This document shows positions 19 to 57,200 of a stretch of DNA of 64,000 nucleotides, piece by piece (positions within the stretch are counted from its first letter, which is position 1; every line of letters begins with the position of its first letter). The notes under the pieces are model-generated. The model had not been told where the DNA came from. It ran no database searches and saw only the letters and a list, made by a program, of their open reading frames with translations. The translations under genes were made by a program, and so were the position numbers. Source of the stretch: Amoebophrya sp. A120 (lineage: Eukaryota; Protista; Dinoflagellata); NCBI GenBank assembly GCA_905178155.1, contig CAJINV010000002.1, positions 9,678,650 to 9,742,649 on the forward strand, in the 5' to 3' direction.

Positions 19-1626
19 TCCGCCAAAGTGCACCTTTACGAGGGCTTCCTGTCCGATGTCGTTCTCTTCAAGGACTTGAACAGGTATTTACAGATGTAAA
101 ATCAATGTTTCGTTTTGAATTATATGAGCAGTTTCTTCAAGAAAAATAAGAATAACATGCAAACTGCCCATGCTATGGATGTTGAACCATGGTGAATCTG
201 CTTTATGAGGTACGAGTTGGGCATGCTCTCAGACCTACTGGTCACCGAGGTGTTCGAGACCAGCGAGACCATCGTGCGGCAGGGCGAGCACGGGGACACG
301 ATGTACATTTTGGAACACGGGGAGTGCAAGGCCTACCTGGAGGGGGACCAGGGTGAGGTGGAGGTGAAGCACTATACCACGCAAGGCGAGTACTTCGGCG
401 AGATCTCACTGATTAAAGAGTGTCCGCGCCGGGCCACCGTGCGGGCCAGCGGCAGCGGTTGTAGTGTGCTGGTGCTCAAGAATATCCAAGAAAAAAAAGA
501 TTGTAGGTGTAAATTTCTTGGAGGAATAGCATGACAGAGATAGCAAAAACCTGTCATGCTGAGATTGTAAGTACGTGAACACGCCGACGCCCTTGAATGG
601 ACCCTACAGTGTAGGCATAGCATGACAGGCGCAATCGATTTGCATTTTGCGCATCACAAGTTTACACTAACAATGTTTTTTTCTTTGATAAAGAAGGCGG
701 ATTTCGACCGCGTCATCGGGCCGATCGTGGACACTTTAACAGGTTGAAAAATGTAGTTGCCCCGCTCTCATGATACGCAGAAGATGAATAAGGATTTGTA
801 CAAGGGAACTACCTGAATAATTTTTGCTACTTCTAAGTACTTCCATTGGAGAAGACGCAAAGGTTCTTTCTTGCATTGATGGCCTTTTTTGCATCACAAT
901 TTTTTTTCTTTTCTGGGAGCGGGGCACTTGTTTTCCGGTTGATGCACTTTGCTCGGCCTTTATCCTGAGTAAAAACGTACCCACACCAGAGTCAAGATGG
1001 GGAATCGGCTAGACAAATCCACAAGTTTTGGCTGTTTTGCATGACAAATTTGGACTCGTAGCGTAGTGCTGTTTGAGCTAGCTCAGCAGCATCACAGATC
1101 TAGCATACCATGCTGATTGGAGCTTGACAAATTGCAAAACATGACTAGAAAATGCTTCTCATGGAGCTCCGCATGAGAAACATTTTCAGCATGCAGATTT
1201 GCATTACAACTCTGGTGTGGGTACGTTTTTACTCAGGATAGCCTTCTGGACGCGTACCCACAGTACCGGGCGTTCTTTCCGTATCAAAAGGAAAAACTCC
1301 CCCTCCCCATATCGAAAACGAAATTTGTGATGCTGGATTTGAGTAAACAAATCAGATCTGTCTTGCTGAAGAGGACTGCAGGCCCACATCAGGACTGAGT
1401 CGAGAGGTTTTGGCCTAGGCGCTTAGCATGAGAAACGTCTGCGCTGTAGGCCAAACAGCATCACAAACCGCCTTCATAATGCGGCGGAGCCTGTGGAGTT
1501 GCCTTCTTGCAGGACAGAGATGATTTGTGGTCGCAAATCAGCATTACAAATTTTCTGCTACGTACCTTTTCGATATGGGCAGGGGGGATTTTTCCGCACA
1601 ATATTCCGAGTAAGGAAAAGGCTTGA
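19..1626 (+). CDS. 3' part of a cyclic-nucleotide-binding protein, PKA regulatory subunit-like (5' truncated). Exons ~19-83, 210-482, 696-736, 950-960, 1246-1281, 1609-1626
   Basis: Spliced translation SAKVHLYEGFLSDVVLFKDLNRYELGMLSDLL...IVRQGEHGDTMYILEHG...GEYFGEISLIKECPRRATVRA...LVLKKADFDRVIGPIVDTLLGLLDAYPQYRAFFPSKEKA*. It contains the cNMP phosphate-binding cassette FGE...PRxAT. One GT-AG intron (84-209) and four TIR introns. Confidence 0.85.
483..690. mobile_element. Non-canonical TIR intron (introner)
   Basis: ~31-nt imperfect TIR TATCCAAGAAAAAAAAGATTGTAGGTGTAAA / TTTACACTAACAATGTTTTTTTCTTTGATA; direct repeat AAGAA at 478-482 and 691-695; removal gives VLK|KADF. Confidence 0.92.
737..944. 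mobile_element. Non-canonical TIR intron with degenerate ends
   Basis: TAACAGGTTGAAAAATGTAGTTGCCCCGCTCTCA / TGGGAGCGGGGCACTTGTTTTCCGGTTGATG; direct repeat CACTT at 732-736 and 945-949; frame restored (DT|LLG). Confidence 0.8.
961..1240. mobile_element. Non-canonical TIR intron with a perfect 32-nt TIR
   Basis: TATCCTGAGTAAAAACGTACCCACACCAGAGT (961-992) is the exact reverse complement of 1209-1240; direct repeat GCCTT at 956-960 and 1241-1245. Confidence 0.95.
1282..1603. mobile_element. Non-canonical TIR intron, family B (second copy at 36357-36677)
   Basis: TIR TATCAAAAGGAAAAACTCCCCCTCCCCATATCGAAA / TTTCGATATGGGCAGGGGGGATTTTTCCGCACAATA; direct repeat TTCCG at 1277-1281 and 1604-1608; near-identical along its length to the copy in the bL25 gene. 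Confidence 0.93.
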
Positions 1627-3350
1627 ATGGGCGTTCATTTCGAGCATGGAGAAAGAAGGCTTGAAAGAGGTCCTGGACCTGGTTGGTCGCGCAGACAATT
1701 ACCTCCCAGAGCGGCAACACCACCTGTGTTTGAGTTACGGACCGAAGTAGTCATGATAAATTTCTACGGAAAAGTATATAGAATTACCACCAATTCGCCG
1801 AAGCAGCAATGTGTGAATATCATCGTGAAGATCAAAATCATTTTTCGTTTTCGCTAGCTTGTACGATTCCCGACTGTAATATCTCAGAGCAAAAGAATCG
1901 TAGGAAATACGACTTTTGCTCGAAGTTGAAGTTGTATAGAGCACGGGCTTACATGTATACATACATTTCCATTGTCGCAGTTGAAATTCAAAGTGAACAG
2001 TCTTTGCAAGTCAGACGCAAGTGCACGTACTTACTCTCAGAAAACAGAAGACGTGGAAAAGCACAGGACATGTTGGTGAGCTGATTCATGTGGCTGGCCT
2101 GGCCGGCCGCGTGCCGGTTAAGTAGTACTGCGGCCATGGTAGTCATGGTCGCTGGCATTGAGTTGCACAACGGTGACGATGTTGTTTCTGCGTCATTATC
2201 GCCCTTTTTTTTATCTTTTCAAATACTCGCACCCCGAAGAAGCGCGGGTCTGAGTTGCTTTTCTTCTGGGAACGTGGCCAAAAGTCGCTTTCTTTAAAGT
2301 TGATTCGTTCGTGGCACTAAGTTGTATCCTGAGATACATCAACTGCAGCATGAATAAAGCCAAAAGCGTATAGAAACGAAACTGCCGCATGTCTGGCGGG
2401 GCACTGGTGTACTTTGGAGGGAATTTGAACCTTACCCTCTCCTGAACAAGTTTCCAAGAGGGAAATATAGATGAAATGAGAATGGTGCGTCTACTTCTTG
2501 GTCCATTGCCTGTCGCTACTCGTATGGTTTGGGTCGTCTGGGGAGTAATCTCCCTGATATCTTTCGGAGTTCAAGAGCTTGGTACGATTCTCCTGCCCCG
2601 CGCCGAGCCGTTACCGGCCGAGACGGCGACCGACGAAACTTTTCTGCAGACCGATGCCAGCGATGAAACCAGAACTTCGGAGAAGCTCCAGCAACAGCAC
2701 GTATTGGGGCTCAACGAAGATGCGGAGTTCTACTCCACGTCGGCCGAAGAGGAGGAAGGTTCTTTCCTTCATCAGTTTCAGGCAGGGCATCAACTAGTAG
2801 ACGGTCACGGTATAAAACTAGTACCACCCCCGCAGCAGGGCGGTGGGCGCGAGCAAGAAGCAAAACAACTGCTGCAGCACCACGATGCCGTTGGTGCCAG
2901 AACGGATGGGGATGAACTAAGACAAGGAGCAGTTTTCCCCACAATTTCGACGTCTATACTGGAAGAAGAGGAGCAAGGGAGTCGTTCTTTTGCAACTGCT
3001 ACTTCTAGCACTTCTTTCGTGCAAGAAGAGAGACCGGGCGAGAGAAGTGAACACCATCGTCCTGCTGCTCCAGCTCCGCCCTCTAGCACAGAACGGCTTC
3101 TGCAGCAGGCTTTACTCCGGCTGGACGCATTGGAAGCGGCAAACCGTGCGCTGGACCAGACGCAGAAAAAACAGAAAGAAATTCTGCAGAATTTGCGAAG
3201 TGAAGACGTGGAATTAGACGAGAAAATAGAGGACGGGGCGAGGGCGCATCAAAAAATGCTTATGATGTACAAAGCGATGTTGATGTAAGTAACAGGAGAT
3301 ACAGATGAATTCAGACTTAAATGAAATGTTTTTCAAATGGCTGGAACAGC

Positions 3351-3421
3351 TTTGCTCATTTTTGCCTTCGCAGAGTTTCATTTTTGCCTTCGCAGAATTT
3401 GCTCATTTTTGCCTTCTGCAG
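3351..3421 (+). repeat. Three-copy tandem repeat of (TTTGC)TCATTTTTGCCTTC(T)GCAG
   Basis: Read directly; each unit is a pyrimidine tract ending in CAG. Confidence 0.8.
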
Positions 3422-3576
3422 CGTCGCTTGGGTCTTGCATAATGTTGTCGCGAATTCGATTCGCCGGGGCTGTGTATCATCAGTTTCTGCACCTCTTGGC
3501 CTGGATTAATCGCGCCGGGGAACGATCACGACTGGCATTCGCGGAAGTTCTGATGCTGATCGGATACCTGTCAATG

Positions 3577-7143: not shown

Positions 7144-7388
7144 TATCAGACACAAATATGTCTGGGTCTGGAGCATTTTTGCAGAGGTTTGCGATGCAGC
7201 TTTCGTATGACCTATCGAGGAAGGTCTGGACGGCTGGTCGCAGCATCAAAAGCTTTGATGAAGCTCCTCGATGCCCAATCTGCATGAGAAATGGAACCTC
7301 CGGATAACTCAAAGTGGGTTGCTTCATTTGCTACTCATTTAGCATCCATCTTCGAGCAAACATCCAGGGTGGACATTTGCAATGCATA
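7144..7388. mobile_element. Diverged family A TIR intron
   Basis: Left end TATCAGACACAAATATGTCTGGGTCTGGA; decayed right end TCCAGGGTGGACATTTGCAATGCATA; imperfect repeat TGTGA/TTCGA; removal joins GPV|TLWQLMHPE (ORFs 6735 and 7291). Confidence 0.75.
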
Positions 7389-13969: not shown

Positions 13970-16900
13970 ATGGGATGCGGCGTCTCGGCCCGGCCGCGCC
14001 CAAGCCATCCTTACCAGAAGTTTTCTTCTCGATCGGAAAACTCGGAAGACAGTCTGGAAAAGGAGCTGAAACGGTCCAACTGCGACTCCAACTATGACAA
14101 CGAAGAGTTGCAGCGCGACACCAGTTCGGCGATCGCCCGGGTCCTTACCACCGTCACTTCTCTGTACAATTTTGTCGAAAATGAGCGGCAAGCCGCCGTT
14201 TTTTCTGTGGAGGCACAGCGGCGAAGGGAAATTTTGCAGCGGTTGGCGGAAAAGATTTGCGAGAAAAGACCGGTGCTGGAACAGTACAACTCGATCTTGC
14301 AGCCTGGTGGTTCATCTGCCTCTCAACAGATTGAGCAACAACATCGGATCGATGCGCAAAATGAGCGTCGCGAGCAAACTCTTCCATTTCCATCCTCGCC
14401 GTCGAAGCAGAAGAAAAAGCAGCTGTATCAAGCGGTGTCCGCGGTCGTCAAGGGGGACCTCATTCTCGTCGAGGTAGTGGAGACGGAACAAACGGGTCCT
14501 CGTGAGCAGAGTGCCGTTATTTCTTTTACCGATAATTCGGGAAGTTCTGCTGCGAAAGTAACCCGCAAGCAGATCCCGTTCACGGAGCTGTGCTGGGAGA
14601 ACGCGAAGCAGTCGCTGCAGCAGGATGTGGAGGTTTTGGTCAAGAACGCGACGGACTACAGCAACAAGCAACTTGTCCACGCCGCGGCGGATTACAGCGG
14701 GCCAAACACGAGAACTCACACCGCTGTTTCTTTCGCTGACATCAAAGGATCGACGTCCTCCTCGCAGGAACAGGGCGGACTGGGTCTGATGGACGAGGAG
14801 CAGCCGGCGACAGGAGAGGGAGAAGTCACGACGACCCCGGCGGCCGGATTGAGTGCAGACGAGGACCAAACGCAGTATTTAACGTTCAAGAAGCGGGAAG
14901 TGCTGGAAGTTCTGTACAAGACAGAGCACTGGTGGTACTGCCGGCAACTGGAAACCACCACGCGCGGAATCTCGCAGACCGGTTGGGCGCCGGCTGCGCT
15001 CTTGCAGGAACTCGGTCGCGTGCACAAAGAGTTCCAAGGAGGAGCTGGCGGCCAAGAAGAGCAGCCTAGAAGTATGAACAGCAGCAAAGAGAAAGAGCAG
15101 GCAGGGGAGGACCAGCAAGAGCAGCAATCGCCGATGCTCTTATCCGTCGATGTCAATGACACCGTTCAAATCCTTTTTCGCCATTACTCCGGGTGGAGTT
15201 ACGCGAAAAAACTAGTACAACAGGAACAACGACGGACAGCACAGCCGGACCAACATCATCCAGAAGTAAATCCGGCTGCCGATCCAGGTGTCGGAGAGCA
15301 GGTGGGCTGGCTGCCGGACGCGTGCATTGTCCCGACTTCCGAGTCCCGGGACAGCAAAACGGTGCGACCGTTTGTGCAGTCGGTGAAGAAGCACAAGGTG
15401 ATCCAGGAGAATTTGCAGAAGATCCTGGAATCCGCTCATGCGGCGCAGAGCTCGCTGCAGTGGATCATGTCGACTTCGAAGTCGAACTTGAGCGGGACGA
15501 CCAGCAACAGCCAAGCCATACTGCTTCCCGGCGCAGCGAACTTCTTGGACGAGGAAACGAATGCGAAGATCGTCGACCAGATCGGACTGTTGATCGAGCA
15601 CTTGACCGTCGAGGTGAAGCAGATTTGCGACGCACTGTACGGCAGCCAGAACTACGAAGGAGCGGGCGCAGCAGGAGTAGACTCTAGTAGTACAACTCAG
15701 AAGCAGGCCCGGGTGCGCTGGCTGTGGGAGCAAGAGGACGGGGGTCGTGGGCCGAACGACGATGAGGGAACAAACAACTCGTCGCAGTTCCTGCAGAACT
15801 GCCAGGTAAACGATGTGGTTACGGTTCTCGCGCAAAACGTCGAGGATTCCGGCTGGAGTTACTGCGTATTGCTGGTGGAAGATAGGGATAGCAGAGCAGC
15901 AGCGTCTTCCGCAGCTTCTTCAGAATCTGGAACAAAGACAGGAACTGGAAAGAACGACACGTATCAGAACGATACCAGAAATAAATCCGCCACAACTACT
16001 GCTTCCGAAGGCTGGGTGCCGGAGGACGCTCTGGACTACGAAGACGTTTACAATTCGCACAAAAGCAGCAAGAACCAGCTGTACCGGAAGGGAGCGAGCA
16101 AATCGTCCACAGCGTCTTCCTCCAAAATGTATCCTCGTTGCTCGATCGACGAGCTTCCGCCGTGGGTCGTGACCGACTCGCCCGCTCGGTGGTACTCGCA
16201 TTCGCAAAAGAAGTACTGTGACGTGCGGATAACGGAGATCAACGAGAGCCGGAACATGGTCTACATCCGGTTTAACGTGAACGAGAACGCGTGGAAGGGC
16301 GTGCGGTTCTACGAGCTTTGCCGCACGGCCGCTAGTCGGAGCAGTTCGAAGAGCAAAGAAAAAAGCGGGCCGGGGGATAGGAGTTTATTGGAGAACCATG
16401 ATTCATGTGGCCTTGACCACGACAGTGCCGACGACAGTGGCAGGCCGTTTTGCTGCCTCCAGCCACCGCTTTCCTACCATGCCGGAGAACAAGAAGCGCA
16501 ATACACCAGAGGAACTAGCACGCTGGACCAAATTCGCGAGGAACGGCCGGAAGACCTCTCCAGCCGTGGCCTAAATGACGTGACCAGCCAGGCGGACGTC
16601 GACATGCTGGGCGACATGGTGACCGGGGTGCAGCAGATGCTGGCGGCCCAGCAGGACGACAATTCGACCACCGGTTCGATGCCCACCACTGGGCAAGAGC
16701 AGCTGGAATTTGACCTGGGCCAGAGCATATGAATTGCAAAAATGTCTGGGTCTGGAAGAATGCATGTTTGTCATGCATATTTTTGCATGCCCCAAGAGGT
16801 CTGCAATGCAGGACTTAGCATGACAGGTTCTGTGAAGTCTCTATCATGTCTATCCCGCATGACAAACTGCCGCTACACTTGTTCAAACGTGGACGCCTTT

Positions 16901-19900
16901 TGGTAATCATGCAACGCAAATTTCTGTACTATCCAGACTTAGCATGACAAGTTCCAACCTTCCAGACCCAGACACTTTTACAATCCATAGAGCAGCGACG
17001 AGGATAGCATCGAGAAAGCTTTGTCCTCTCCCGGGGTTGGTGGAGAGCATGGGAGTACTAGAGGTCGATACAACGCCGCAGCCGCCAAACTTTTGGACAA
17101 GCCCACAACGCCCGTCGTGGTGAACGTGAACAACACCAGTTTTGACGCATCACCCGCCCCGTCCGCGCAGTTCTTTTCCGCACCGGTCACGCCGCCGCCG
17201 AACAGCAACGCAGTAACGCCGAACGCCGTGTTTTCCGCAGTGACGCCCAACAATTATGGAAAGTCGCCGGGGAAAGATGAACCGTCGAGCGACAGCAGGC
17301 AAAGTTCCCCGGCGGTTCGGTTAAACGCCACGACGACCGTGGAGGAGGGGGAAAGAACTCTTGAAAGACGCGACTCCATCCCGTATGTTCCGCCGCCGCC
17401 CCTGCCGAACGAGATGCAGCACGCACCGCCGCCCGAGGAACTCAAGAAGGGCACGATCGTCATGCAGAGTCTAACAAAAAGCGGCGGGATGAGTTTGAAT
17501 TTGCAAGGAAACAATGGTTCGTCCTTTCTCGACGTGCAGCTTGGCCCGTCCGAAACCACGGTGCGTTCCGCGCGGAGGTCTCCGGAAGCTGTGTCCCTGG
17601 ACGGAAGCCCACTGAAACAGCTGAAGTTTCGGAAGTCAGACACCAGGGTATTGGAAATCGCGTCGAAGGAAGAGCTCTCGCAGGTGCTCTTTTTACCAAG
17701 CCCACCGCATGGAGATGCAGGTTTGTTGTGCTGTTTTTGCGTGCTTTTTTTGTTGTTCTCCTCTGCAGCTCGACAAAATCAATGCACTTTTTGCTTCTTG
17801 CACGTGCAACAGGTGGTCTCTTTTACATTGATTAGTGTTTACGGTTTTTTTGTTCCTACTTGTACTTTTCACGTTCAGGAGCCGGCGCCGACGACCAGCG
17901 AAGTGCGAATATCGAGGACATTATGCAAGAAGGTACGCACGACGTTCGCACAGCCGACGTGCTAATCGATGAGCGGAACAACGTGTTGCTCCACCCCGAA
18001 TCCCGACAACCGGTTCTAGCCAGGACAGAAAGTGATGACGTGAATGTGAAGTACGTATACGTGAACCCTGACTCCAACCAAATCACCGGCCTCGCTGCGC
18101 TCCGACCCGACGGATCGCCGAAGAAACTGGACAAGTCCGCAACGAACATCGAGGTGAAAGCGGTGGTCGTAGACAAGAGCACGAAGGCGAAACTGGGCAT
18201 GTTGCCGGTGGCGGAACAGGATTTCTCATCCACTGTGCAAGACCCGTTGAAGGACCCCAGCAACGCCATCCGCTTGGTCATCGATGCGGAGGCGAGGGAG
18301 GTGCTGGGATACTGCGACCAAACAGTTCCGCTGCTGAGCACGTGTGACGAAACGGAAAAACCAGAGTCAAAACAAGTTTCCCCAAACATCAGCACCACGA
18401 GTGGCGCGCCGGCGTCCTCGCCGGGCGAGAAATCGAAGTCTAGCGCGGACAACAAATCCGAAGTTCAGATCCGGCTGCCAGATCCCGGTGTCGGAGTAGG
18501 AGTTGTAGAAGGAGAAAATAAAACCGCGACCGCAGACGCAGCAGTTGCCGCTGGCACACAGCAGACACCAGCGCAGGTATCGAAGAAGAAACAGGAGAAG
18601 CAGCAAAAGAAGGAGAAAAGAGCCGCGGTGCGGATTCAGGCGATCGCCCGGATGTTCTTGATTCTGAAAAAGATCCGGAAACGCAAAATAACCGCGATCA
18701 ACACGGTGAAGGCGAAGTGGCGGTCGTGCGTCGCCATGCGGGTCATGCACAATTTGCTGTACAACTTCTCCGCAACGGTGGTCCAGAAAAGGTGGCGAGG
18801 GATCAAGGGGAGACAGACCGCGAAGCAGAAGAGGAAGGAGTTTGAGCAGCGGCAGTTGGCGAAGATTGGCAAGGAGTTGGAATCCAGCGAGTTTGTCCTG
18901 TCCATGATCAACAAATTGCAGCAATTGGACGACGCGTTGGATTTTAATCACGTGAACAAGGAGCTAAAATACGAATACGAGTCCTTGCGGAGGAGAAGTA
19001 ACAGCAACCCGAATGTGGGCGTTGCAGTGGGCGGCGGAGGACAATCGCACAACAGAAGTTTGCTATCACAAACTCTTGAGCCAAGTAGTTCAACATCCGC
19101 GACTACTACCTCAAAAGGGTCTCCTACAGCCTACCACAACCCGAATTCCGTTGTCGAATTACTTGCCAGCCCGATTGCAGAGCTGCAACCTCCACAAGGC
19201 TACCTGGTGTCGAGTAGCAGTAAGACGAAAACAAGCAAAGGAGCTCCGTCGCCGGGGACTCCTTCTACTACAACTGGTGGAGTTTTTGCCTTCGCTAACG
19301 CCGGCGGATTGTCACTCGCGCCAACTTCACCGGCGAAGTTGCAGCAGAAGAAAACCACGCAGCGCGGGAAGATCATGGTGCTCGCGGGGAAGACGGCGGA
19401 TATGCGGAAGAAAGAGCACTTGCTGTTTGAAGAGGCGATTCAAGCGCGAATCGGGGTGCTGGAGCTGGAGCTGGCAAACGCAGCGGAGGCGGAGAGAGAA
19501 AAGCTGGAGGCGAAGCGGAAGGAGCGGCAAAAGCGCGTGGATTTGGCGAAGGAAAGGAGCTCGGCTTCCTCGTCTTCCGGGAACGAATCGACCTCCACAG
19601 AAGTTGTAGCTGAAAACGGCGACAATGACAAAACAAAGCCAGAAGCGCTGCAGGCGGAGAACCAAAAAGATTTGGACAATTGGTTCGAAATGGAAAAAAG
19701 CAACTTGGAAAAAGAGATAAGCGAAACACGAACTTACGAGCTGGACAAGCTAAAATTAAAATCGAAGCGGCTCCGGGCCCTGCACGATTTGGCGGACGCG
19801 TTTGTCGGCATTCCGCTGTTTAAGACGTCAAAAGACAACGAAAACAACTTCTCGCAGCAGAAAGACATCGAGGTGCAGAACGTCAGCGTGATCAATAATT

Positions 19901-39407: not shown

Positions 39408-41633
39408 CCAGGAAGATGAACTGCCGGCGGTCTGGACGTGGAGAGGGGATCTTGAATGTGCAATGTATAAGTATAAAAATGTATGCCAGCCACACTTGCG
39501 ACGAGTCATGAAATCCAGTGATGAATCTTAGTAGTGAACCAAATGGAGGAGCAGCTGCAATTGCGACAATGAAAGCTGTAATCAAAAGCAACATTACTTG
39601 TTCCTCGTGCAATTACCAGTTAACAACCTCAAAGATCGCGTTACAAGTCCGACTCCGAGCTCGAGTGCAAAGGCGGGCAACAAAGTCGCATTGGTGACGA
39701 GTCCTCCCTCTGCTTCGAAAGCTGTGCTGCCCCCAATACCTTCTATTCTTGGAGTAAAAGATATAGCGCCGCCGTGCCGTCCTTCAGCATCAGCGTCGTC
39801 TGTGTCTCGTTCGCGCGACAGCAGTGGGGCGGGTGTATCTCGTCCGCGCGACATTTTGCGAAATAATAATGAATTTCACGAGCACGACATTACCATTACG
39901 CGGCCCCGTGAGGGGAAACATCAAGACGCAGGGCCGGAAACAAGAGGTAAAGTCTCAACATAGGAGCTTCTTATATCAAATGAGTAAGGTCAGGACGTCG
40001 TGTCTGTGCTCCTGCGATAGAAACAAAAACATGTGAACCACAATCCGAAATTAATATAAGTATAACTGTCAGGTACTAACATCTTGAGTAGCGATGGCGT
40101 CGTTATGTTTGCTCCGGCAAATATGGATATGACCGATGGGGCAAGTGCATCAACTGCCTCTGGAGCCAGCGAGGATAAGAAGGAAGCCATTCGAGGCCCG
40201 ACCCATGCAGCTTCCAGGGTAAGTGGAGAAATTTTCCCGCGATGCGACGACGTGGAGAACGGGGCAAATAAAACCGACGTGAAGAATATTGGGAACTACG
40301 GAGAAGGTCCTAATAGATACTTCTTTCTGTTTTGTATTCGTTGTCTCTCGAGGTGAAGATGTAATAAGTCCGCTGTAAACCGGATAAGGCACGTGATCCA
40401 CAAAGGGAGTGCACCTGCGAGCGGAAAAATCGGACCCGCATCTGCTTTTGCTTCGTCTCATTGCAGAAAAGCAGTGACCCAAGCGAAGTCAGTCAGAAAA
40501 TTTACCTATTTACCTCCAGGAAGAGGCACTGCCGGCGTTCTGGCCCTGGAGAGTGGATCTTGAATGTACAGTGTAAAAAATGTATGCCAGCCACACTTGC
40601 GGCGAGTCATGAAATCTAGTGAAGAATCTTAGTAGCGAACCAAATGGAGGAGCACCAGCAATTGCGAAAATGAAAGCTGTAATTATGTGCGAGCAACATT
40701 ACTTCCGCATGCAATTACCAGTTGACTTTAATGATCGCGTTGCAGGTCCGACTCCGAGCTCGAGTGCAAAGGCGGGCAAAAAAGTCGCGTTGGTGACTCC
40801 TCCCTCTGCTTCGGAAGCTGTGCCCCCAGTACCTTCTATTCTTGGAGTAAAAGATATAGCGCTTCCGCACCGTCGAAGCCCTTCAGCGTCATCCGTGTCT
40901 CTGTCGCGTGACAGTAGGGATAGTATTGATCGGCAACATCACCAGCAAGAATCAGCAATACCTTGTTCACGGCCGGAAACAAGAGGTAAAGTCTCAACAT
41001 ACATAGGAGCATCTTTGTCAAATGAGTGAGGTCAGGATGTCGCGTTTGTGCCCCTGCGATAAAAACAAAAACATGGGGACCACAATCCGAAATATAACTG
41101 TCAGGTAACATCTTGAGTGCGAGCTCTACCTCCTGCTCCTCGAGCGATGTCGTCGATATGTCTCTTCCGGCGGATAAGAATATGACCGCTGGGGCGAGTG
41201 CATCAACTGCCTCTGGGGCCCGTGAGACCCCTGCAGCTTCCAAGGTAAGTGGAGAAATATTCACGCGAAGCGACGCGAATCGCAGTTCATCATTGTCGGT
41301 GAAATTGCCTGCGAGCGCACATGCCCATGACGAAATGAAACTCGCTAAGAATGTAAACGACGTGGAGAACGCGAACGGGGCAAAAACCGACGTGAGTAAT
41401 ATTGGGAACTACGGAGAAGGTCCTAATAAGTAGATACTTCTCTCTGTTTCGTATCTATTCGTTGTCTTTCGACGTGATGTAATAAGTCAGCTGTAAACCA
41501 GATAGTGCACGAGATCCACAAAAGGAGTACACCTGCGAGCGGAAAAATCGGACCCGCAGCTGCTTTTGCTTCGTCTCATTGCAGAAAAGCAGTGACCCAA
41601 GCGAAGTCAGTCAGAAAATTTACCTATTTACCT
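39408..41633 (+). repeat. Diverged tandem duplication with a ~1.1-kb unit (39408-40515 and 40516-41633)
   Basis: Both units begin CCAGGAAGA.. and end ..GAAAATTTACCTATTTACCT; many colinear shared blocks; both encode similar peptides (PTPSSSAKAG..PSILGVKDIA; NIGNYGEGPN). Confidence 0.9.
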
Positions 41634-42102
41634 ACTATTTTCATCAGGTCACAATAGCGGATCAACATCAACAGCACGTTGGCGGTCGTCAGGCACAGAT
41701 GCTGTTGCAGAAGCAGATAGTACGTCCACGTGGAGAAGGAGCACAACGTGGCATGCGACCGCTGCCGGTTCACCAGAGGTGTGCGTCGACCCCAGAGGAT
41801 CGCTGACTGCCACCGACCTTGGTGATCCTGGTCGACACGGGGCGAGAGGGCGCAGAGGCACGGAGTCGTGGAGGCACACTGCTGCTCCGTTTCTTAGCGG
41901 TCTTTTCGAGAAAAGTTCATCCAAATCGAGCGCCTCGGGCACATTACCGGCTGCGAAGTTATTCCCCGCGGAGAAGAGCAAGGCGGACGCTGAGGACGCA
42001 GGTACTCCAACTTTTATGGAAGCCATGATCATGACCAGGCACCAGCGACTAGACTAGCCCTTCACTAAGAAACTCACTCCTAATCATGTATTTTTAATCA
42101 GG

Positions 42103-44218: not shown

Positions 44219-44318
44219 NNNNNNNNNNNNNNNNNNNNNNNNNNNNNNNNNNNNNNNNNNNNNNNNNNNNNNNNNNNNNNNNNNNNNNNNNNNNNNNNNN
44301 NNNNNNNNNNNNNNNNNN
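44219..44318. other. Assembly gap (100 N)
   Basis: Run of N; a similar CTCCGKTTTGGGC motif on both flanks suggests a collapsed repeat. Confidence 0.99.
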
Positions 44319-45920: not shown

Positions 45921-46780
45921 AGCGTACATAAGTTCTCGCAGGAGATGACAGCCACAGCCATGCTTTGGTCTATGATCAGGTAGACGTACAGATGACGAGA
46001 CTCGACGCGCAACTCATTTTTGCGGGACACACGTCCATCACGGGAGCCTTCTTGTTAAAAATCTGATGAACGACAAAAGCGGAGACAACAGAAATGTTTT
46101 TGTGTTCAATGATACGAATGCGGTGCCATAATGACGTTGTCTTTGCGCACAAAAAATCCGCCTCCTTTACTTTTAGGGTATCGACGACTCGCTCAGGACG
46201 TCGGTATTCTCTGCTTTTCGTCAAACGAAAAACTAAGTTGTGACAAGAAGTCCGCGTCAACATCGTCATCGTATAAGTGGCATTCTTTTTCGTGGTCGTG
46301 AAAGTCGTGGATCAACATCGTATTGAAGCATGGGATACTGCTTGCGCAAAAAAAAACATGCGCTTTCTTCGGTATTCATCATTGTTCTGTGTAAAACGTA
46401 GTTGCGTCGAGATCTTCAGCAACGGTGATACTGCTCTGGGTCTGCCTTGACGTATATATATTACATAGCTGGACACTAAACGACGCCATATCCTTTTTCT
46501 ACAAGAGCTAGAGACCTTCTGCTTTTTTTGCAATAAACGCACACACAGGCCGGCGCAACAGTTTTTCTAGTGCGTAATGTAAATGTTTGTTTCTCCGCCT
46601 CCTGGCTACTCATAACGTATCAGTATCACAGTAACTAGTTGTATTTGCTCCAGAAGACGCAACATAGAAGAAAATGAAGTGAAGCTTTGCTTTGGTGGTA
46701 GCAACACACACCATGTCAAGCTAGGATGAGACTCACACGCGAAATAGGACAGTGTCGGCAGCGCCAGGCTGGTGAGGGGC

Positions 46781-49700
46781 ATGTTGTGCCGCATGTCCTC
46801 CGGTAAAAGTCATTGCACTATGGAAGTCTCCCTGTCCGCAGTGGTGCGGCCGCGGGGTCTCACCCGCCGCCGTTTTCTGTGGCTCGACGTCTGCTGTTCC
46901 ATTCTCTACTTGTTGGGGAAAAGAAGAACCACGGCCACCGCGACAGCGCACGACGAGAAAGCTAGCTTATCTTCGCCCGAAATAAATGAAGATCCTGAGA
47001 ACACAACGCCGATTTCCTACCTGGAGCGCCGTCGTGGCTGTTGTGGCGGCGGCGATGAAGATGCGGGTAGCAAAAATGACACCAACGGAACCGACTCCGG
47101 CGACCTCAGTCCGACCTCCGAGTCCTCGGGTGTCAACAACAAGGACAAACAAGACGAAAGCGAGATCTCGATTTTGGCCACAGCCTCCGGGAGGCAGGTG
47201 CTGAAGTCGACCTACACGGCTAACGACGTGACCCGGTGGTACTTCCTGACCGCGAAGGGGGTGACGCAGTGCCCGGCTCCATCCTCCCGGGGCCTGCTGG
47301 ACTCAGCCAACATTGACAACCACGCCGCAGCCTGCACCAACATTTTGAGTCTCTTCGCGCAGAGCAACAATGCGGAACTCGACAGGCCAATCAACAAAGT
47401 GGACGACGCGGAGTACAGCGGCGGTCTGCCGACGAATTGCGTTCCCGTCGGCTGCTCCGTGGAGGTCAGCGCGGAGAAAAACTGGACGCATTTTCTCCGC
47501 ACGAAACTGACCGCTTCCGTGCTGAGTCCCACGCTCGGGGACTGTCCGGAGGGCAAGCGGAATTTGAACTTACAGCTGGTTTGCGAAGGCGACGAGCAGG
47601 AGGCGGCGGACAAGGCTCCGGTTTTTTCCGAAGCGCCGCGGGCGTTGCGGGAGGCCGCACAGGACACGCAGCTGCAGGCCTGGCTGACGGAGCAGGACAA
47701 CCGCGCGCCCACGGCGTCGCCCTTCTGCCGCGTGTTGTCGGCGGCCACGCCGGTGGAGAACGCGATCAACCTGATTTTTCTCCCGGACGGCTTCCACCAC
47801 CTCGGGTTCGAGGGGCACATGAAGTGGAAGGAAGTGGTGTGGAAGATTTGGGAGGGCTTCACCCGCGTGCTTCCCTTCGACGCGAAGCAGAACGTCGGGA
47901 TGAACATTCTGTACGTCGACACCGCGCTGCCCGATCCCTCGGTGCCCCCCAAGGACGCCACCGCGGAGGAGATCGCCAACCACGACCCGAACACGCACTG
48001 CCGGCTGAACTGCCAGGGCATCGAGCGGCTCTTGTGCTGCGGCGAGATGGACGTGTGGAACCGGTTCGCCGCGCTCCACTGCGGCGCGGGACTGTACATG
48101 GGCACCATGGTGATCGCGAACATGGACCAGTACGGGGGCGCGGGTATCACCACGAAAAACTCCGCGACCATCACCATTCACGCGGAGGCGGTCAAGCTCG
48201 GCGTGCACGAGCTGGGGCACGGGATTTTCGCGCTCGGCGACGAGTACGCGTACACGGAATACGCCACGGCGGACCTGACGCCCAACTGCGACACCTGCGA
48301 ATTCGACCCGCAGAGCTACCAGCTGGTGAACCCATCGGACCCGAATAACTGCAAAAAGTGGCGGGATTTGCTGGACGCCAAGCGAGATCAAGACATCTTC
48401 TCCTCCGGGGTGGAGGAGGTGGGGTGCCACCCCGGCTACTGCTACGAGCACAAGTTTTGCGTCGGCTACGAGGACTCGATTATGCTGGCCTTCACAGACG
48501 CGATCAACGAGCTCGGACCGGTGAACGAACGGGTGACCTGCTGCAAGTACGTCATCCTGCTGCAGCAAATCCCGCCGTACTGCCAAAAATTTGACCGCAA
48601 GGGCCTCGACCTCTTTGCCTTTTGCGCCGGCAGCTTGTGGAAAACGCCCACGACGAAAAGCACGCTACAGCGCTTTGACAGGACGAGCAGTAGTTCCTCG
48701 ATGCTGGAGACCGAGTACAAAGAGTTGAAGGAAACAAGTACTTCTGGAAGTAGATCGAGAATGAAGTTGCGCCGCCGGACGTACATGTATGACAAACCCG
48801 TGAGGAGCTCCAGATACCTGTTTCGCGGTTCGTTGGCAAAGTCGCCGCGTTCGAAGGCAGCGTCCATCCCCGAAATGCAGGGCCTGTTGCTCAACCAAAC
48901 GGCAGACTTTACGCTGGTGTCCTCTGCCAGCACGGAAACTACAACGGCTCCTCCTTCAACTTCTTTTTTGTCCGTCGCGGGGAACAACGACGTCGCGGCG
49001 CCGGGAGCTTCCCTCGCTGACGCGCGCTTGTCGGAGGAAGACGACTCGTTCGTGATTGCCGCCCATTCGGAGGTGCTCAACCTGCAGGGGGATTTCGACG
49101 CGAGCGAGCTGCCGACGGCGGAAAAAGCGCGGGAGGACCTCGGGCTCCCGGTGGCGCCGGCCACGCCGCTGGAGCGCAATATTCTGCTCGATCTGGACGT
49201 GCAGGGCGGCACGCCCTTCATGGTGGTGGAGAAGCCAGTCGAGTGGCGGCTTCACCGGAGCGGAACAGAACCGACCGACCCGTGGCAGTGCAAGATGCTG
49301 CCCACCGAGGTGCCCGTCGTCACCTCCACCGAAGAACTGTTCGCGCAACCAAATCAGCATGCGGATGGTGGTGGTGGTCCTACTGCTTCACCTTTATCCC
49401 AAAGCCAAAGCTATTCTGCAGAAACCGAGCAGTTGTTGCGGGAGCGCGCCGGGCCAGCGCCATTGTCCTGGACGTTGGACGCCGAGGTGCCGCCAGAAGA
49501 GGAGGCCGAGAACGCGGCCGCGAAGCGGCGGCTGGTGCAGGACATGCGGCTGCAACGCCGGGTACGCGGGCTGTTCAGCCCGATGCGCCATACGGTCGAC
49601 GGCAACGCTCGGCTGTTGCCGAATCCGGCGGATTTCGGGTTTGACCCGAACTACTTTGTGGGTGCGCCCTACTGCCGCCAATTTGTCGGGAACGAGTGGC

Positions 49701-52700
49701 TGCGGAACTACGAGACAAACAGCACGGTGGGACACCCTCCGGTGGTCGATATCAAAAACTGGGGCTTTAAAACGAAGGCAAAATACGAAGCCACGCAGCC
49801 GTTTCTCTGCCGGGTGAAGATACGCAGCGACGCGGATTCCTTGGCGCAGAGCGGCGTGGTTATGGAAACTGACGTGGAACTGAATACTGATCATCAGACG
49901 TTGTTTGACGCCAGCGGTTCCTCGACAACATCTGCAAGCGATCAGACGCCGTGTCATCAGGCGTTACGCTACGCAACCGACCTGCGCAACCGATTCGCTT
50001 CAAAGAAGACCACACATGAGGGCTTCGGTCTCGAGCTCTTGCTCTCTCTGCTACCCTGGATCGATAGGAATGCGTTCCTTCAACAGAAGCAAACTGCAGA
50101 CGCCTTGAACAAAAATCCGCAAGGCGTCGATAATGCCGTCGAAATAAATCTGAACGCAGGAGGCGATAACAATGAGCGGTCGGTGCTGCTGACACTGGGA
50201 GGCCCTCAGATGTGCGAAATAATCTGCGATCTTGTAACAGCCTGCATTGCTTTTTCGGTCGTCGAAGAGATGGCAAATCTCGAAGGTGGGAAGAGCTGGA
50301 CTTGCAGTCTGCAGAGCACTGGCACCCTCGAGAGGCTGGAAGGGGCGAGTGATGGGACGACTAATGACTCTGCTGATCATTTGAACTCTGCCGTTTGTAC
50401 GCGTCGCGTGTGCGAGCGAGAGACCGAAATCGTGGATAGTCTTTCATCCGCGCAATCGTTTTTTCCTAGCTCACGAATGCGGGACGCGTATTGCGGAGAG
50501 AAAATTGATTGCGTCGTGACTCCGTGGGAACCTGTGCCTGAGCCGGTAGGAGACGTCGACGGGGGCGGCCAGATTTCCTTCGCAGAGAAGACAAGAAAGT
50601 TGCAAACAGCGCAGCAGGCCACATCGTCAACCACCAGAAAGCAAAAGTTTGTCGACATTGCAGAAGGAATCAAGGACGGCACTTACGCTGGCAACGAGCG
50701 GTCGAAGTATGGCCCGAACGAGAAGGACGCTTTTCTGGGGCCCTTCCCCGCGGCGCTGCAGAAAGTGATGCACGAGGAGTTCGGAACCGAAAATCCGACC
50801 GAGGGCGAGACGGAGCTGTTTGTCGCAAACCCGAAGAAAGCGAGCAACTGGGATTACAAAGACACTTACATCAGGAGCTCGGAGCTGAATCGGTGCGAGC
50901 AGGAGGTTTTCGTGGCAGCATTGGAAGCTTACTCCGGAGCAGAGTACGGCGGTCCTAGAGTGAATGTGAGGAAGATCCCGGACGCAGTGATTGGCGAGAT
51001 CAGTACTGAAGAAAAAGCCGAGGAGTTCCGCGCACTGATACACCAGGCCCGGGCACAACAAACCAACTGCTCGCTGGAACCACACGTGGAATCCACACGT
51101 GGGATTGTCATCCACGTCGTGGATGACAATCCCAGCGATCAGGAAGTACAACATCCAGGCAATAACGAGAACAACTCCGCAAATGCCCCTGCCGCTGCGG
51201 GAGAGGTAGATGACACATTTGCGGTGGATCAGCACAGCGGTCAAGAGGTCCAAGAACTAGGCAACAACGAGAACAACTCCGCAAATGCGAATGCCCCTGC
51301 CGCTCCTCCTAAGCCTAAAGGTAAGGCCTACGGACAACTTCTCAGACCACCCGCGTGTAGCAAGCCGTGCCAAGGAGCGGACAAACAGGGCGGTATTACT
51401 TATGTCGGTTGTGCGCAGGGTGGTGGTGCCGAGTCGCAACGGAGGTAGGGAATGCCCAAAGCTAGAGCTGCAGGTGCCTTGTAACCAAGACGTGGTCTGC
51501 CCCCCCGGCTACTCCGAAGATGGCGGATCAGGGGATCTCAATGCTGCTTGGCACGTGAATAGCCACCACCTGGAAGACGGCCGACTTCGACCCATCGGAA
51601 CTATTGCTCCGCCCCCGCCCGCAGCAAAGTACGGGCTGTACCCGGTGGCAATCGTCCTCGGAGACACTCAGGAGCAGATCGACCAGGCAAAAAAGCTAAA
51701 CGAAGGCACGACGCCCCCTACCGTGACGGTGAGGATAAAACCGTACGTCAAACAAGGCGATAATACTCGTGGAGATGATGCTGGTACCACGTACCAGTGA
51801 TGGTGATCCTAGCGCAACAACGACCTCCGAGACCGCCACGACAACGGTGCTGCTGCACTTCGTTACGTTTGACACCTTATCAAATGTAAAAATGTCTGGG
51901 TCTGGAAACTTGTGATGCTGGGTGGCGTATCATGAGGAAGCCATAAGTGCTGGCTCAGCATGACAAGTTTCTGAGCTTCTAGGTGTTGCCTATTCTGCAT
52001 GACAAACTGCGTTTTTGCATGACAGGAAAGTGGGGTTCTTGGGTAACCTGCATGACAGATTTAAGAGTCATGCCAGAGAAGCATGACAAATCGCGCATTC
52101 TTCCAGACCCAGACATTTTTACACTTGATACACCTACGAGTCCCTCGAGCCTGGGCCGCCCGTTTCCGCCACGGAAAAGAAGGATCTTGCCGCTGCTGGG
52201 CAGAACGTGCAAGAACAAGAAAGCCGGTTTGCCGGAGAACCCCGGAGGGAGGTTATCAGAATGAAAAATGCCCCTACCCCCGAACTTGAAAGCATTTGTA
52301 TTGCAAACCTTTCCAAATGAAACATTCGCCCTCTTGCACCTATCAGCATCACAGGTTTCCAATCGTGAATAGCGAAAATTTGTATTGCAAAAGACCCCAG
52401 CAAGAGCGGCGCTTGTCATGCAAGGGATGCGATACACACCTAGACTCTGCATCAGAAAGATTCATACTCGTTTCATGCATGACAAAAAGTTTTCATTTGG
52501 AAACTTCGCATCACAAATTTTTGCAATTTGAGGGGTGGGGGGCATTTTTTACTGTAATAGAGGTTCGGTTGATCTTGTCAGAGGGCGAGGCCTATGAATT
52601 GCAAAAATGTCTGGGTCTGGAAGGATGCAACTTGTAATGCTCATTCTGGATCGTGCAAGAATCTGTGTTGCATGAATGCCAAAAGTTGTCCACTTTTGTT

Positions 52701-53228
52701 TTTGACCAAGTTGAGAGGAAGTTTCTCATGCAGGATTGGCATGATAGGCATCTCACAGAATCTGTCATGCTAGGTCCTGCATTCCAGACGACATGGATCG
52801 TGGAAAAACTCCATGACAAATCTCAGAATCTTCCAGACCCAGACATTTTTACGTTTGATAAGGCCTGCCAGGTGGTGCAAAGAGATCCCGCGAACCCGGA
52901 AGAGTGGGTAGAGGTAGACAACGACGCGACGACGCAGCACGAGGAGACGGCCGCTGAACAAGATAGTACCGGAGCCGTGGCATCTTCTTCCTTCCTCGCG
53001 CGCGGTCGTGGGCGAAAGATGAAAGGAAAGCAAAAGATACATCAAGAAGAAGTGAGCAGCAGTCGGGGTCTTGTAGTTGAGGCGAGCTCGCCGCATCAAC
53101 TTCCGCGCAGAACAGCATCTCTGCCGAGGACGAAGAATTTTCTTCGAGGACTGCGACAGCGGCACAGAACAAGGGACTCTGACAGGCAACGTACTGAAGA
53201 TGTCGTGTGGGCAGAGTGGAAATCTTAG
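46781..53228 (+). CDS. M64-like zinc metallopeptidase with PAN/apple and TSP1-like modules, paralog 1. Exons 46781-51877 (two apparent frameshifts), 52136-52253, 52565-52592, 52866-53228
   Basis: INLIFLPDGF and HELGHGIFALGDEY (48206-48247); CEIICDLVTACIAF; CSKPC..RRVV..GGRECP..PCN..CP. The spliced C-terminus FVTFDTYES..PRREVRLILSEGEACQVV aligns with paralog 2. Confidence 0.8.
51878..52130. mobile_element. Family A TIR intron
   Basis: TIR TATCAAATGTAAAAATGTCTGGGTCTGGAA / TTCCAGACCCAGACATTTTTACACTTGATA; direct repeat CACCT at 51873-51877 and 52131-52135. Confidence 0.95.
52254..52559. mobile_element. TIR intron whose repeat contains AG|GT
   Basis: TATCAGAATGAAAAATGCCCC / GGGGCATTTTTTACTGTAATA; direct repeat GAGGT at 52249-52253 and 52560-52564. 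Confidence 0.92.
52593..52860. mobile_element. Family A TIR intron, inverted relative to 16728-16989
   Basis: Family A TIR; direct repeat AGGCC at 52588-52592 and 52861-52865; the interior is the reverse complement of the 16728 copy. Confidence 0.95.
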
Positions 53229-54253
53229 ATACTGATACTTACAAAATAGCGCTCATGTCATAGTACACAAACCCTCGTAGTCGATGCAGATTATTGCGAC
53301 CAGGAGCAGGACCATGTCCACCAAGAAAAAGTTTTTTTTGTACGATCCCACTGATTGACTCATTCATTCTCTATCTAACTCAACACAGCAACATGATTTT
53401 AATGAGAGAAATTCGGCCCTTGTTTCTGTTTTCATTCTATCCATTGATGTCTTTCTCTCTCCCAGACACAAACACCGCTTCATAAAAGCGCTTGTCGACT
53501 AATCCGTCATCACACGACGATGGATGAGTATCACTCTGTACGTTCAGTAGACTTGTTGGCCCAACATTGCCAGGAGGCAGACCTGTATCCGATGTCATGA
53601 AGAGACTGGAATTCCCATTGCATTTGATCGCGATGATTTGGTGATCGGGCGTGGACAGAGCATCCCTCTTACGAAGGATTCCATCACGAAACTCATCATG
53701 TTGTCCCTCGCAGTTGATGATGATGCAGATCTTTGTACCAACTTCTGACTGTCCCGCACACTGGCCACCGGCGCTATTGGAGTACATCGACGTTGGGGGC
53801 TTCTAGTCGTTGGTTGCAACATCAGCGGTGTACCTCTGGCAGTTTTTGTAGTCGTAGCGATTGCAGCTGAATTTCGTGTCTGTCGCTGCATCGTGGGTGT
53901 GGGCGGGACGAGAAAGATTCATTTCGAAAGTGTATACTTGAAAATGAAATTGAATCTCAATTATTTTTCGTGGATTAGCTCGTCGCCCAGTCGTTTAGTT
54001 TTTTAGATGCACAGTTTGTCGTCGTGTAGTCGAGCCTTCTTCAAGCTTTCATTTCTGAATTCCTGATAAAGCTAAGTCGCGGCTGCTACGAAAATCAATT
54101 GGAATAAAAGGAAAAAGTAAGCACAATTTATTTCCACCGCGGCGGGACGTTTTTTTTTTTCAATACGAATATCATGGATTACGGATAGTACCATGCGCTT
54201 TAAGCATATTCACTGACTCCATCATGTAGATATTCCATGCCTTCCCCTTCGCC

Positions 54254-57200
54254 ATGTCGGTTTTTCCGGCGAAAAGAGCACGTGCACTTTTTTGTTTCCG
54301 ATTCCGCTGGTTTTTGTTGCTGCACCGGAGCAAAAATTTCGCTCCTCTTCATTGCGTCAGAGCACTCGCAGTCGAACAGCAACTGAATGGAAAAACGAAA
54401 GCCGAAGCAGAGCAACCTTCCCCGTCCTGTTGTGGATCAACATCCCTTGAGGAAGATGAAACAAAAACTGATTCCCAGGGTCCGTTACAACCCCCACCTT
54501 CGGAGCCCAGCAGTGGCGGAGAGGAAAGCACGCCGGTCAGCAGCGGTATTATCCCCGTTGCCGATCCGGACCTCATCAAGCCGCAGCAGAACCCGGAGTG
54601 GCGCGAGGAAATCGTGTACTCGAGCGAATTTTCCTTCGCCAACTACACTATCAAGTGTAAAAATGTCTGGGTCTGGAAGGATGTAACTTGTGATGCGCAT
54701 TTCAGAACACACAAAAATCTCTGATGCATAGGCAGCAAAAACTGCTCACTTTCTGTCACCAAAGTGGGGGATTTGTCATGCGGATTCGGCATTGCGGAAG
54801 CTTCTCGGAACCTGTGACGCTAGAGCTTCCATGCAAGACCTTCTGTGTCATGCAGAAACAGCAGGACTCTTCCAGACCCAGACATTTTTACATTTGATAT
54901 ACACGCAGGAGTGGCAAAACCGCGCGCCCACCGCGACGGAGTTTTGCCGGGTGCTGAGCGTCCGCACGCCGGTCGAAAACGCGATCAATGTGATTCTGCT
55001 GCCCGACGGGTTCCACCACAAGGGCCGCAAGGGGCGGACGCGGTGGAAGCAGATCGTTTCCAAGGTGTGGCAGGGGTTCCAGCAGATGGAGATCTACGAC
55101 GCGCGGAAGAACAAGGGGCTGAATTTCATGTACGTCGACACCGCGATTTACCTCCCGGACACCGGGCACGAGAAGCACTGCACGGTGGGGTGCGACGGCG
55201 TGAAGCGGATCGTGTGCTGCGGGGACCTGGACAAGTGGAACCGGTTTGCGGCAGAGCACTGCGGCAGCGGGCTGTACATGTCCACGCTGGTGATCACCAA
55301 CGACGACGAGTACGGCGGCGGGGGCATCCCCCTGCAAAATTCCGCCGCGATCTCCTCCCACGCCGATGCGGTGGGCCTCGGGCTGCACGAGATGGCGCAC
55401 GGGGTGTTTGCGATCGGCGACGAGTACGACTATACCCCCCACGCCACGCCGGAGATCGTTCCCAACTGCGATCACTGCAAATTCGACCCGAACACGCTGG
55501 AGCTGGACCCCACGGCGGAAAACTGCCCCAAGTGGAAGGATTTGCTGACTGCGAGAGAAAAGGAAAATGTCTTCACTGAAGGGGAGGACAATGTCGGCTG
55601 CAATCCCGGGTTCTGCCACAATAACAAGTACTGCGTCGGCTACCCGAACTCGCTGATGAAGATGCTGTGGAAGCCGATCGGGCCGGTGAACGAGCGGATC
55701 ACCTGTTGCAAGCATTTGTATCTGCTGCAGGAGGTTCAGCCGTACTGCGAAAAGTACGACAAGGAGTTCAGTTCCAAAACGAAGACGCTAGACCTGTTCC
55801 AATACTGCAGCGGGAAAAATTGGCGTTCCGTGAACAACGCGGACAGCACCTTGCAACGGTTCGACGGCCACTCGTATTTCAAGGGTGCGCAGCGGACGCC
55901 GACTACGGGTGCGGCCTTTGTAGAAGTGAGGAAGAGGAGAAGTAAAGCAGATGACTTGGTACTAGCCGAGAATTCCACCGCTTCTGGAACAAATGCTGAT
56001 ACTGGTACTGCTCAAGAAAATCCAGAAAAAATCGAAGAGAATTTCGACGTACAACAGGCCCATGTAGTCCGTCTGATCCAAGAGTACCACAACCAGGCCG
56101 CGAAACGCATGCAGGAGAAGGAGAAAAGCGAACGAGAAGTGTTGGAAAAGGAAAATCATGTGAGTGGTAACGATCAAGAAGATAATGAGAACTCCCGTCT
56201 GTTCAAACTCCTCGGACGGGCCTACAATCCCTCGCGCTTCCACGTGCAGACCAAGCTGGACGATTCGTTTCTGCCTTCCGTGGAAGAGATTCAAGAAATT
56301 CTGGGTCTCAAGTACCCGCCCAGCCACCCATTGGAGCGCAATATCGCTCTGGAGCGAGATCTGAACGGCGCGACGAAGTTTATGCTTGTGAAGAACCCGG
56401 TGGAATGGCGGTTGTTTCGAAAAAACGTCGAGTCCGCTTGGCAGTGCGAGATGCTGAGTCCCGGGAGGCCGGTGTTGGGCGACGAAGGGGATGGTAGTGC
56501 TGGTTCTTCTACTACCATATCGGGAGGAGCTTTACCCGTGCCACCAGCAGATGACTCAGAAGATCCACTGCATGTTATCAGTCCGGAGCCCAGCTTGGGG
56601 CTGCTCGCGCAGCGGGCGCTGCGGGGTATGCAAAGTCCGTCGGCGATGACGACGGAGCAGATGCTAGCAGATGCGGAGCTGTTGCCGCGGGGCGAGGAGT
56701 TTAAGTTACCAAATCCAAATTATGTCGCGAATGAGCCGTACTGCCGCGGAGGGGATATCAGTGGAGCGAGCGGGTTGGGGAGTAGTGACATCAACAACTC
56801 TATGGACGAGGCAGACAAAAAAAGTTGGAACTGGCTCCGCAGTTGGCGAGTTGTAGACATCGGTAGAAGTAGTTCTGCTGAGTCGCTCCGTATTGAACAT
56901 GACTGGCAGGTTAGCACGAACGGGGGTGATGGTCAGGATGTTGATGACAAACCGGTTCTGTGCAAAATCCCAGCGGCGGGGCGGCGTGCCACGACATCTT
57001 TAACTGACAGCTCCACGGTTTCTGCGAACACAGAGGAAAGTCGAGAGCTGTGCCGAAACGCATGGAAATATGTAAACGAGGTTGAAAAACAGTTGTCAGC
57101 ACTGGATGTGAAAAGTGAAAATGCTGGTGAACAGCAGCAGAATGCACCGTCCTCGCAACCATTACCTTCGAATGACGACCCGCTTCACATGTTGCGAAAT

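Follow-up and report, generated by a model that had tools for sequence, protein, structure and literature searches.

In Amoebophrya sp. A120, the introners described by Farhat 2021 (PMC7789003) carry inverted repeats that open with TAT, continue with seven bases of lower conservation and then have at least three As, and they are bounded by direct repeats of 3-5 nt. The accessible text of that paper leaves open how these introners are spliced and mobilised. A related Amoebophrya with U1 has mostly canonical introns according to the portion of PMC12005148 available to us. Here we describe a stretch of 64,000 nucleotides of the A120 genome (contig CAJINV010000002.1, positions 9,678,650 to 9,742,649; hereafter the window, whose own numbering is used throughout) in which ten paired elements with terminal inverted repeats (TIRs) share such an end motif. 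These elements have a common anatomy, occur in both orientations and contain an internal GCATNAC motif, and five of them were seen to be removed from RNA-type contigs as the element plus 5 nt, four with joints that do not permit a GT-AG reading. We consider it moderately probable that they are introner elements removed from RNA together with one copy of their target site duplication (TSD), that the end motif is where a transposase with its gene elsewhere recognises and cuts the DNA, and that splicing is guided mainly by a hairpin. Both the end motif and the element class are already published for A120, and the motif as first stated for this window adds no new biology.

Anatomy of the elements

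The motif TAT-N7-AAAAA has 25 matches on the two strands of the window, compared with 1.22 +/- 1.17 in shuffled sequence, and none of 100 shuffles reached 25. The spaced end motif reported in a preliminary description of this DNA is therefore genuine, and the seven left ends quoted there were all found where claimed (483, 961, 1282, 16728/52593, 36880, 51878 and 52254). Nineteen of the matches are ends of the ten paired elements, which are 196-322 bp long; five matches are without a partner (22632, 38710, 48145, 54151 and 62596), and a match at 3-17 on the minus strand is probably the right end of an element starting upstream of the window. TAT, seven further bases and a run of three or more As are present in all 20 paired ends. 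None of these ends deviates at positions 1-3 and 11-14, and 19 have A at position 15, while at each of positions 4-10 the two ends mismatch in one to five of the ten elements; this per-position table is circular, the ends having been picked by the motif itself.

A TSD of 5 bp abuts TAT directly. It is exact in eight of the ten elements, with a single mismatch in the ninth and two in the tenth. The elements contain stops in all three forward frames and no open reading frame (ORF), and no strand is assigned to them. Element families recur within the window, where many contigs of run X1 stack on elements. Predicted pairing between the two ends is strong in most elements and weak in the inner part of the element at 483.

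Removal from RNA and comparison with host proteins

RNA evidence comes from contigs of four runs of one sample, which we presume to be RNA; in support, they skip seven GT-AG introns and leave approximately 46700-50000 uncovered. Five window elements are missing from these RNA-type contigs, each skip corresponding to the element and exactly 5 nt. The element at 36357-36677 (321 bp, imperfect TSD GTACT/CTACT) is bridged in four of four runs by a joint from 36352 to 36679 (326 nt) that keeps the G of the left TSD copy. Likewise in four of four runs, a joint from 36877 to 37079 (201 nt) spans the element at 36880-37075 (196 bp, imperfect TSD CAAAC/CCGAC) and retains bases 1-3 of the left copy. Since these two imperfect TSDs differ between copies, the position of the cut can be mapped; in the element at 36880-37075, 0-2 nt separate the 5' cut from TAT, and the 3' cut lies 3-5 nt past ATA. 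The elements at 51878-52130 (253 bp, TSD CACCT), 52254-52559 (306 bp, TSD GAGGT) and 52593-52860 (268 bp, TSD AGGCC) are skipped in an X5 contig (one of four runs) by 258, 311 and 273 nt, respectively. A GT-AG reading is impossible for four of the five joints, including the one at 36880, and possible for one; the element at 52254-52559 can be read as GT-AG by using its TSD.

The three elements spliced from this single X5 contig lie in a region, 51800-53240, which follows a stop at 51798-51800 and has a longest open frame of only 215 codons after their removal. These elements may be spliced without coding selection.

Host proteins provide a further comparison. Exon 199-480 encodes a cNMP-binding domain, 100% identical to the protein P0002 of Amoebophrya sp. 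A120 and 77% identical to the A25 orthologue P0003; the Amoebophrya lineage of these proteins is Syndiniales. The element at 483-690 (208 bp, TSD AAGAA) is inside this PKA regulatory subunit-like gene. It is followed by a decayed eleventh element at 737-944 (208 bp, exact TSD CACTT), in which TAA/ATG replace TAT/ATA and the A-runs are retained, by an element in a coding position at 961-1240 (280 bp, perfect 32-bp TIR, TSD GCCTT), and by one at 1282-1603 (322 bp, TSD TTCCG) that belongs to one family with 36357-36677 (90%). Taking these four elements and 5 nt with each out of 199-1630 yields a 129-residue product, the last 126 residues of which are the end of P0002, and which is colinear with P0003. 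Removal of 737-944, for which no RNA joint was seen, is thus required by protein comparison for the C-terminus of P0002.

The element at 16728-16989 (262 bp, TSD GAGCA), oriented opposite to 52593-52860, interrupts a long ORF, and its removal joins 987 and 323 open codons. Indirect evidence for this removal is an RNA-type contig piece that stops at 16721, where the joint would fall. At 54649-54899, close to the beginning of a gene with a Peptidase_M64 domain, is an element (251 bp, TSD TACAC) whose flanks have no RNA contig cover; its removal leaves 139 and 1760 open codons. An empty site was looked for in the Peptidase_M64 paralogues, and none of them aligned across the 54649 junction.

A larger sample of elements

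Scanning a metagenome collection with TIR positions 16-35 of the commonest family as the pattern gave 141 loci with 400,687 bases, out of approximately 320 estimated stretches; a single assembly accounts for 79 of the 80 listed. The elements of this assembly are 74-96% identical to those of the window, and among the top matches it shares no unique sequence with the window. The sample stems from the same species or a close one and does not amount to an independent lineage; it is also weighted towards one family and the elements next to it.

Among 147 ends of that one family, found by positions 16-35 only, conservation is 94-97% at positions 1-3 and 97-99% at positions 11-13, with 74% at position 14 and 80% at position 15, and the complete TAT-N7-AAAAA is present in 76. 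The near-fixation of positions 1-3 and 11-15 proposed in the preliminary description was therefore upheld for 1-3 and 11-13 and not for 14 and 15. Its companion claim, that positions 5-10 vary and mismatch between ends, is borne out across the window elements; within this family, positions 6, 8 and 9 are also 95-97% fixed.

A de novo search, with an exact 5-bp repeat and paired positions 16-35 as its sole criteria, returned 211 candidates, compared with 2 in a block-shuffled control, which together with the shuffles of the window rules out a chance origin of the end motif. TAT was present at both ends in 167 of the candidates, and 181 were within one mismatch of it. The other 30 were dropped before clustering. 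All of the 15 end families obtained from the 181 start with TAT, only ends within one mismatch of it having entered the clustering. Twelve of these families mostly have AAA at positions 11-13, while the remaining three (12 elements) have it in none of their 24 ends. A universal AAAAA at positions 11-15 is ruled out by these A-run-less families as well as by the one-family ends described above. The two ends of the 181 elements disagree in 1-5% of cases at positions 1-3 and 11-13 and in 9-56% at positions 4-10.

Of 239 TAT..ATA pairs chosen without use of the repeat, 167 have an exact TSD of 5 bp, 2 have one of 4 bp and none has one of 6 bp, and the TSDs of outside pairs show no base preference at the target. 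TAT and the 5-bp TSD are nearly universal in these loci. For 37 of 137 elements, removal together with 5 nt opened at least 100 codons to either side, whereas registers of +3, +4, +6 and +7 gave 9-10. Family members lie in the same orientation as the host strand in 42 cases and opposite to it in 37. A GT/GC-AG reading in any register was available for 9 of 112 stranded outside elements. Because elements occur in both orientations and so few can be read as GT/GC-AG, whatever guides their splicing is symmetric. The fixed 5-bp duplication, the lack of target preference and the random orientation together suggest that a DNA transposase moves the elements in trans.

Long TAT..ATA spans with a 5-bp TSD were seen at L044:2986-4016 and also in L034, L048, L056 and L076; the one in L044 contains other elements and the rest may be nested. 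An autonomous element or integrase was sought in six long TAT..ATA spans, most of them apparently nested or mis-paired, and none was found there.

An internal motif common to the families

The heptamer GCATNAC, usually followed by A, occurs in 748 copies in 190 outside elements, compared with a shuffled mean of 37. It was detected in 188 of the 190 and in every family, including the A-run-less ones. In the window, 33 of 46 GCATNAC sites fall inside the ten elements, which span 2.7 of 64 kb, and none of the seven canonical introns of the window contains one. The families had been described as unrelated; their interiors are mostly unalignable, but this motif is shared by nearly all of them.

Copies of GCATNAC peak 30-50 nt from the element ends with mirrored polarity, and 284 of 380 ends have one at 20-70 nt. 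Elements contain several copies each in both polarities (180 sense, 220 antisense), and relative to the host strand there is no 5' or 3' bias (22 vs 15, p=0.32). The decayed element at 737-944 has a single copy, at 891. Judged from these sequence patterns, GCATNAC is likely a subterminal transposase-binding repeat. The lack of strand bias counts in favor of this possibility, since a subterminal repeat acting at the DNA level would be expected to show none.

How the elements may be moved and spliced

In the mechanism we favor, one lineage of integrase-like DDE transposases, resembling IS3EU/GingerRoot in its TA..TA ends, would cut at TAT and would bind positions 11-30 and the GCATNAC repeats. 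Splicing would be guided mainly by the two ends pairing into a hairpin, functional in either orientation; on the 5' side the RNA would be cut 0-2 nt ahead of TAT and on the 3' side 3-5 nt past ATA, limits that one element sets. TAT and the A-run may assist splicing, neither half being indispensable. The end motif is likely a transposition signal and not the sole splice signal. The suggestion that one recogniser serves all families is plausible for transposition, given TAT in all 15 families, the 5-bp TSD and the cross-family GCATNAC, although no transposase was found. The elements behave like an integrase-type miniature inverted-repeat transposable element that is not assignable to the IS3EU/GingerRoot or Ginger superfamily.

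Several observations weigh against transposase-mediated spread and hairpin-guided splicing. Neither a transposase nor an autonomous element was identified in the window (24 translations, Pfam) or in the 400 kb of outside loci (ORFs, by a motif regular expression). Farhat 2021 (PMC7789003), in its accessible text, likewise reports no transposase in A120 and argues against general mobilisation by transposases. The usual TSD of IS3EU/GingerRoot is 6 bp and not 5 in the portion of PMC10045372 available to us, and any link of the published A120 family fam38, discussed below, to these ends is conjectural. A perfect hairpin is not required: at positions 1-8 of the element at 52254-52559 hardly any pairing is predicted, and this element is nevertheless removed, and only 12 of 30 end positions are complementary in 737-944, which needs removal. 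Finally, variants of TAT were found eight times at the 5' end and never at the 3' end (one of six features tested), which hints that the 3' AUA is read in RNA.

This last point also favors a different view, in which splicing relies on the bipartite end motif as its signal and a protein or a variant small RNA, in place of U1, recognises that motif in the pre-mRNA. We regard this as doubtful. U1 small nuclear RNA (snRNA) is undetected in A120 by the accessible account in PMC7789003. The seven GT-AG introns seen in RNA are without the end motif, so two classes of introns coexist, and positions 1-3 and 11-13 are those at which the two ends of an element rarely disagree. However, a transposase acting on young elements predicts equal conservation, and the skew of TAT variants was not upheld by a second strand call (10 vs 3, p=0.09) and was gone in unpaired ends (7 vs 6). 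AAA shows no strand bias (5 vs 2). The 3' AUA was accordingly rejected as a strand-specific signal and remains a hint. Some elements of the three A-run-less families lie in long ORFs; removing one of them, L011, with 5 nt would leave 421 and 368 open codons as read from sequence. ORFs were specifically restored in 2 of 14 elements without AAA at either end, compared with 27 of 116 with AAA at both (small numbers). Together with the absence of TAT at both ends of 737-944, the A-run-less families in long ORFs weaken the earlier proposal that the end motif is the effective splice signal. No small RNA or snRNA in the window matched Rfam at the gathering threshold. A second, U1-independent route that removes symmetric transposon introns whichever way they lie and reads a pan-family code of end hairpin, GCAUNAC branch signal and 3' AUA, with a fixed cut register inside the TSD, is a rather unlikely possibility; under it, any insertion of the transposon lineage would be a perfect intron.

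Another possibility, which we find distinctly unlikely, is a modified U2-type spliceosome that uses GCAUNAC as the branch point and the U-run as the pyrimidine tract, the inverted symmetry of the elements providing both in either orientation. GCATNAC contains UNAC, the core of the branch consensus, its copies peak 30-50 nt before the 3' end, and the only copy surviving in the decayed 737-944 is a sense copy near the 3' end. Against this, GCATNAC is missing from seven of seven canonical introns of the same genome, its multiple copies in both polarities are no better retained at the 3' end, and GCAUNAC would pair poorly with the standard U2 branch-binding sequence. A minor-spliceosome reading, based on the AT-AC 5' splice-site consensus with N-TATCC as the 5' site, was set aside, since the base before TATCC is not constant and minor snRNAs are reportedly lacking. 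U2, SF1, U2AF65 and U2AF35 are reported in A120 in the accessible text of PMC7789003, and TIR introns of Fritillaria are reportedly removed by the spliceosome (PMC11282704, as far as its available text goes); both reports favor the U2 reading. Spread via an RNA intermediate, by reverse splicing or reinsertion of excised introns, could account for the shared ends without any transposase and would agree with the failure of Farhat 2021 (PMC7789003, accessible text) and of our own searches of the window and outside loci to find one. We consider this very improbable. The fixed 5-bp duplication, the lack of target preference and the random orientation are marks of a staggered DNA cut, and reverse splicing would be expected to favor sense orientation.

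Other features of the window

An orphan left end of the commonest family is present at 7144-7177 on the plus strand, with no matching right end or TSD found. A degenerate element proposed at 3261-3440 fails the simple model of element plus 5 nt. In this region, an X3 contig links 3259 to 3788 via 130 other letters, and TAT-like ends at 3261, 3577 and 3783 are without GCATNAC; a pair of elements that decayed long ago is a possible source. In the raw RNA reads, X12 (989-1046) and X11 (16934-16982) match element fragments only and no exons, with consistent differences, which suggests that a different strain or lineage has related elements.

Long ORFs at 46748-51448, 54400-60185 and 60941-64000 are three paralogues in tandem, each encoding a Peptidase_M64 domain (E 1e-8 to 1e-11). 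One of them has weak PAN and TSP1 matches, and only the second contains a TIR element, near its start. A tandem duplication with a spacing of approximately 1.1 kb at 39400-41650 has canonical GT-AG introns whose flanks RNA-type contigs join. An 89-nt spaced direct repeat lies in a GC-rich island (0.70) at 23001-24000, and there is a gap of 100 Ns at 44219-44318. Every ORF longer than 400 codons is on the plus strand, in a block of genes that all run one way, an arrangement which the accessible part of PMC7789003 describes for Amoebophrya.

Comparison with known systems

The window elements agree with the A120 introners of Farhat 2021 (PMC7789003), so far as the accessible text and legends describe them, in organism, end motif and direct repeats (5 bp in the legend of Fig. 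S19), as well as in their length of approximately 240 nt, non-canonical junctions, hairpin, repeat families and one-strand gene block. Like those introners, they have boundary repeats, non-canonical removal, repetition and no coding capacity. The direct repeats of that description are 3-5 nt long and variable in position, whereas the duplication in the window is 5 bp and abuts TAT; this is no difference in kind. The available text of Farhat 2021 mentions neither GCATNAC nor orientation independence nor families without the A-run, although Figs S19-S25 of that paper may show them. Nor was GCATNAC found in the accessible supplement text of Gozashti 2025 (PMC12130899), whose figures may show it. 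The limit of 0-2 nt for the cut before TAT was not found in the accessible published descriptions of these introners. Literature joining Amoebophrya and branch points, or a later mechanism paper, was not found in a search that left most subscription journals outside. The present results ease tests of how A120 introners are spliced and moved by offering three handles: GCATNAC as a candidate transposase-binding site or branch point, variants without TAT or without the A-run, and imperfect TSDs that locate the cut.

Gozashti 2025 (PMC12130899), in its accessible parts, lists A120 families of TIR DNA introners of approximately 250-320 bp. Four short motifs were not found in the available supplement text. 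Its fam38 has a 5-bp TSD and TA/TA termini like the window elements, and differs from these ORF-less elements in being approximately 808 bp long with homology to an integrase-like ORF. Among transposons, the available descriptions give IS3EU/GingerRoot (PMC10045372) TA..TA termini, as in 167 of our 211 candidates, with the usual 6-bp TSD that was seen in none of 239 pairs here. Tdd-4 and Tdd-5 of Ginger2/Tdd share the 5-bp TSD, while the termini of Ginger1 and Ginger2/Tdd are TGTNR and not TAT (PMC2836005, accessible text). Functional analogues are found further afield, in introns of the Fritillaria and euglenid TIR kind (bioRxiv 10.1101/2025.08.15.670264, as available). As far as the accessible text of PMC11282704 describes them, introns of Fritillaria borealis and of euglenids are, as in A120, derived from transposons with TIRs and TSDs and are removed without GT-AG. 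Their ends are different, AG-AC or AG-AT in Fritillaria and CAG/CTG in euglenids; removal is spliceosomal in Fritillaria and gives circular products in euglenids.

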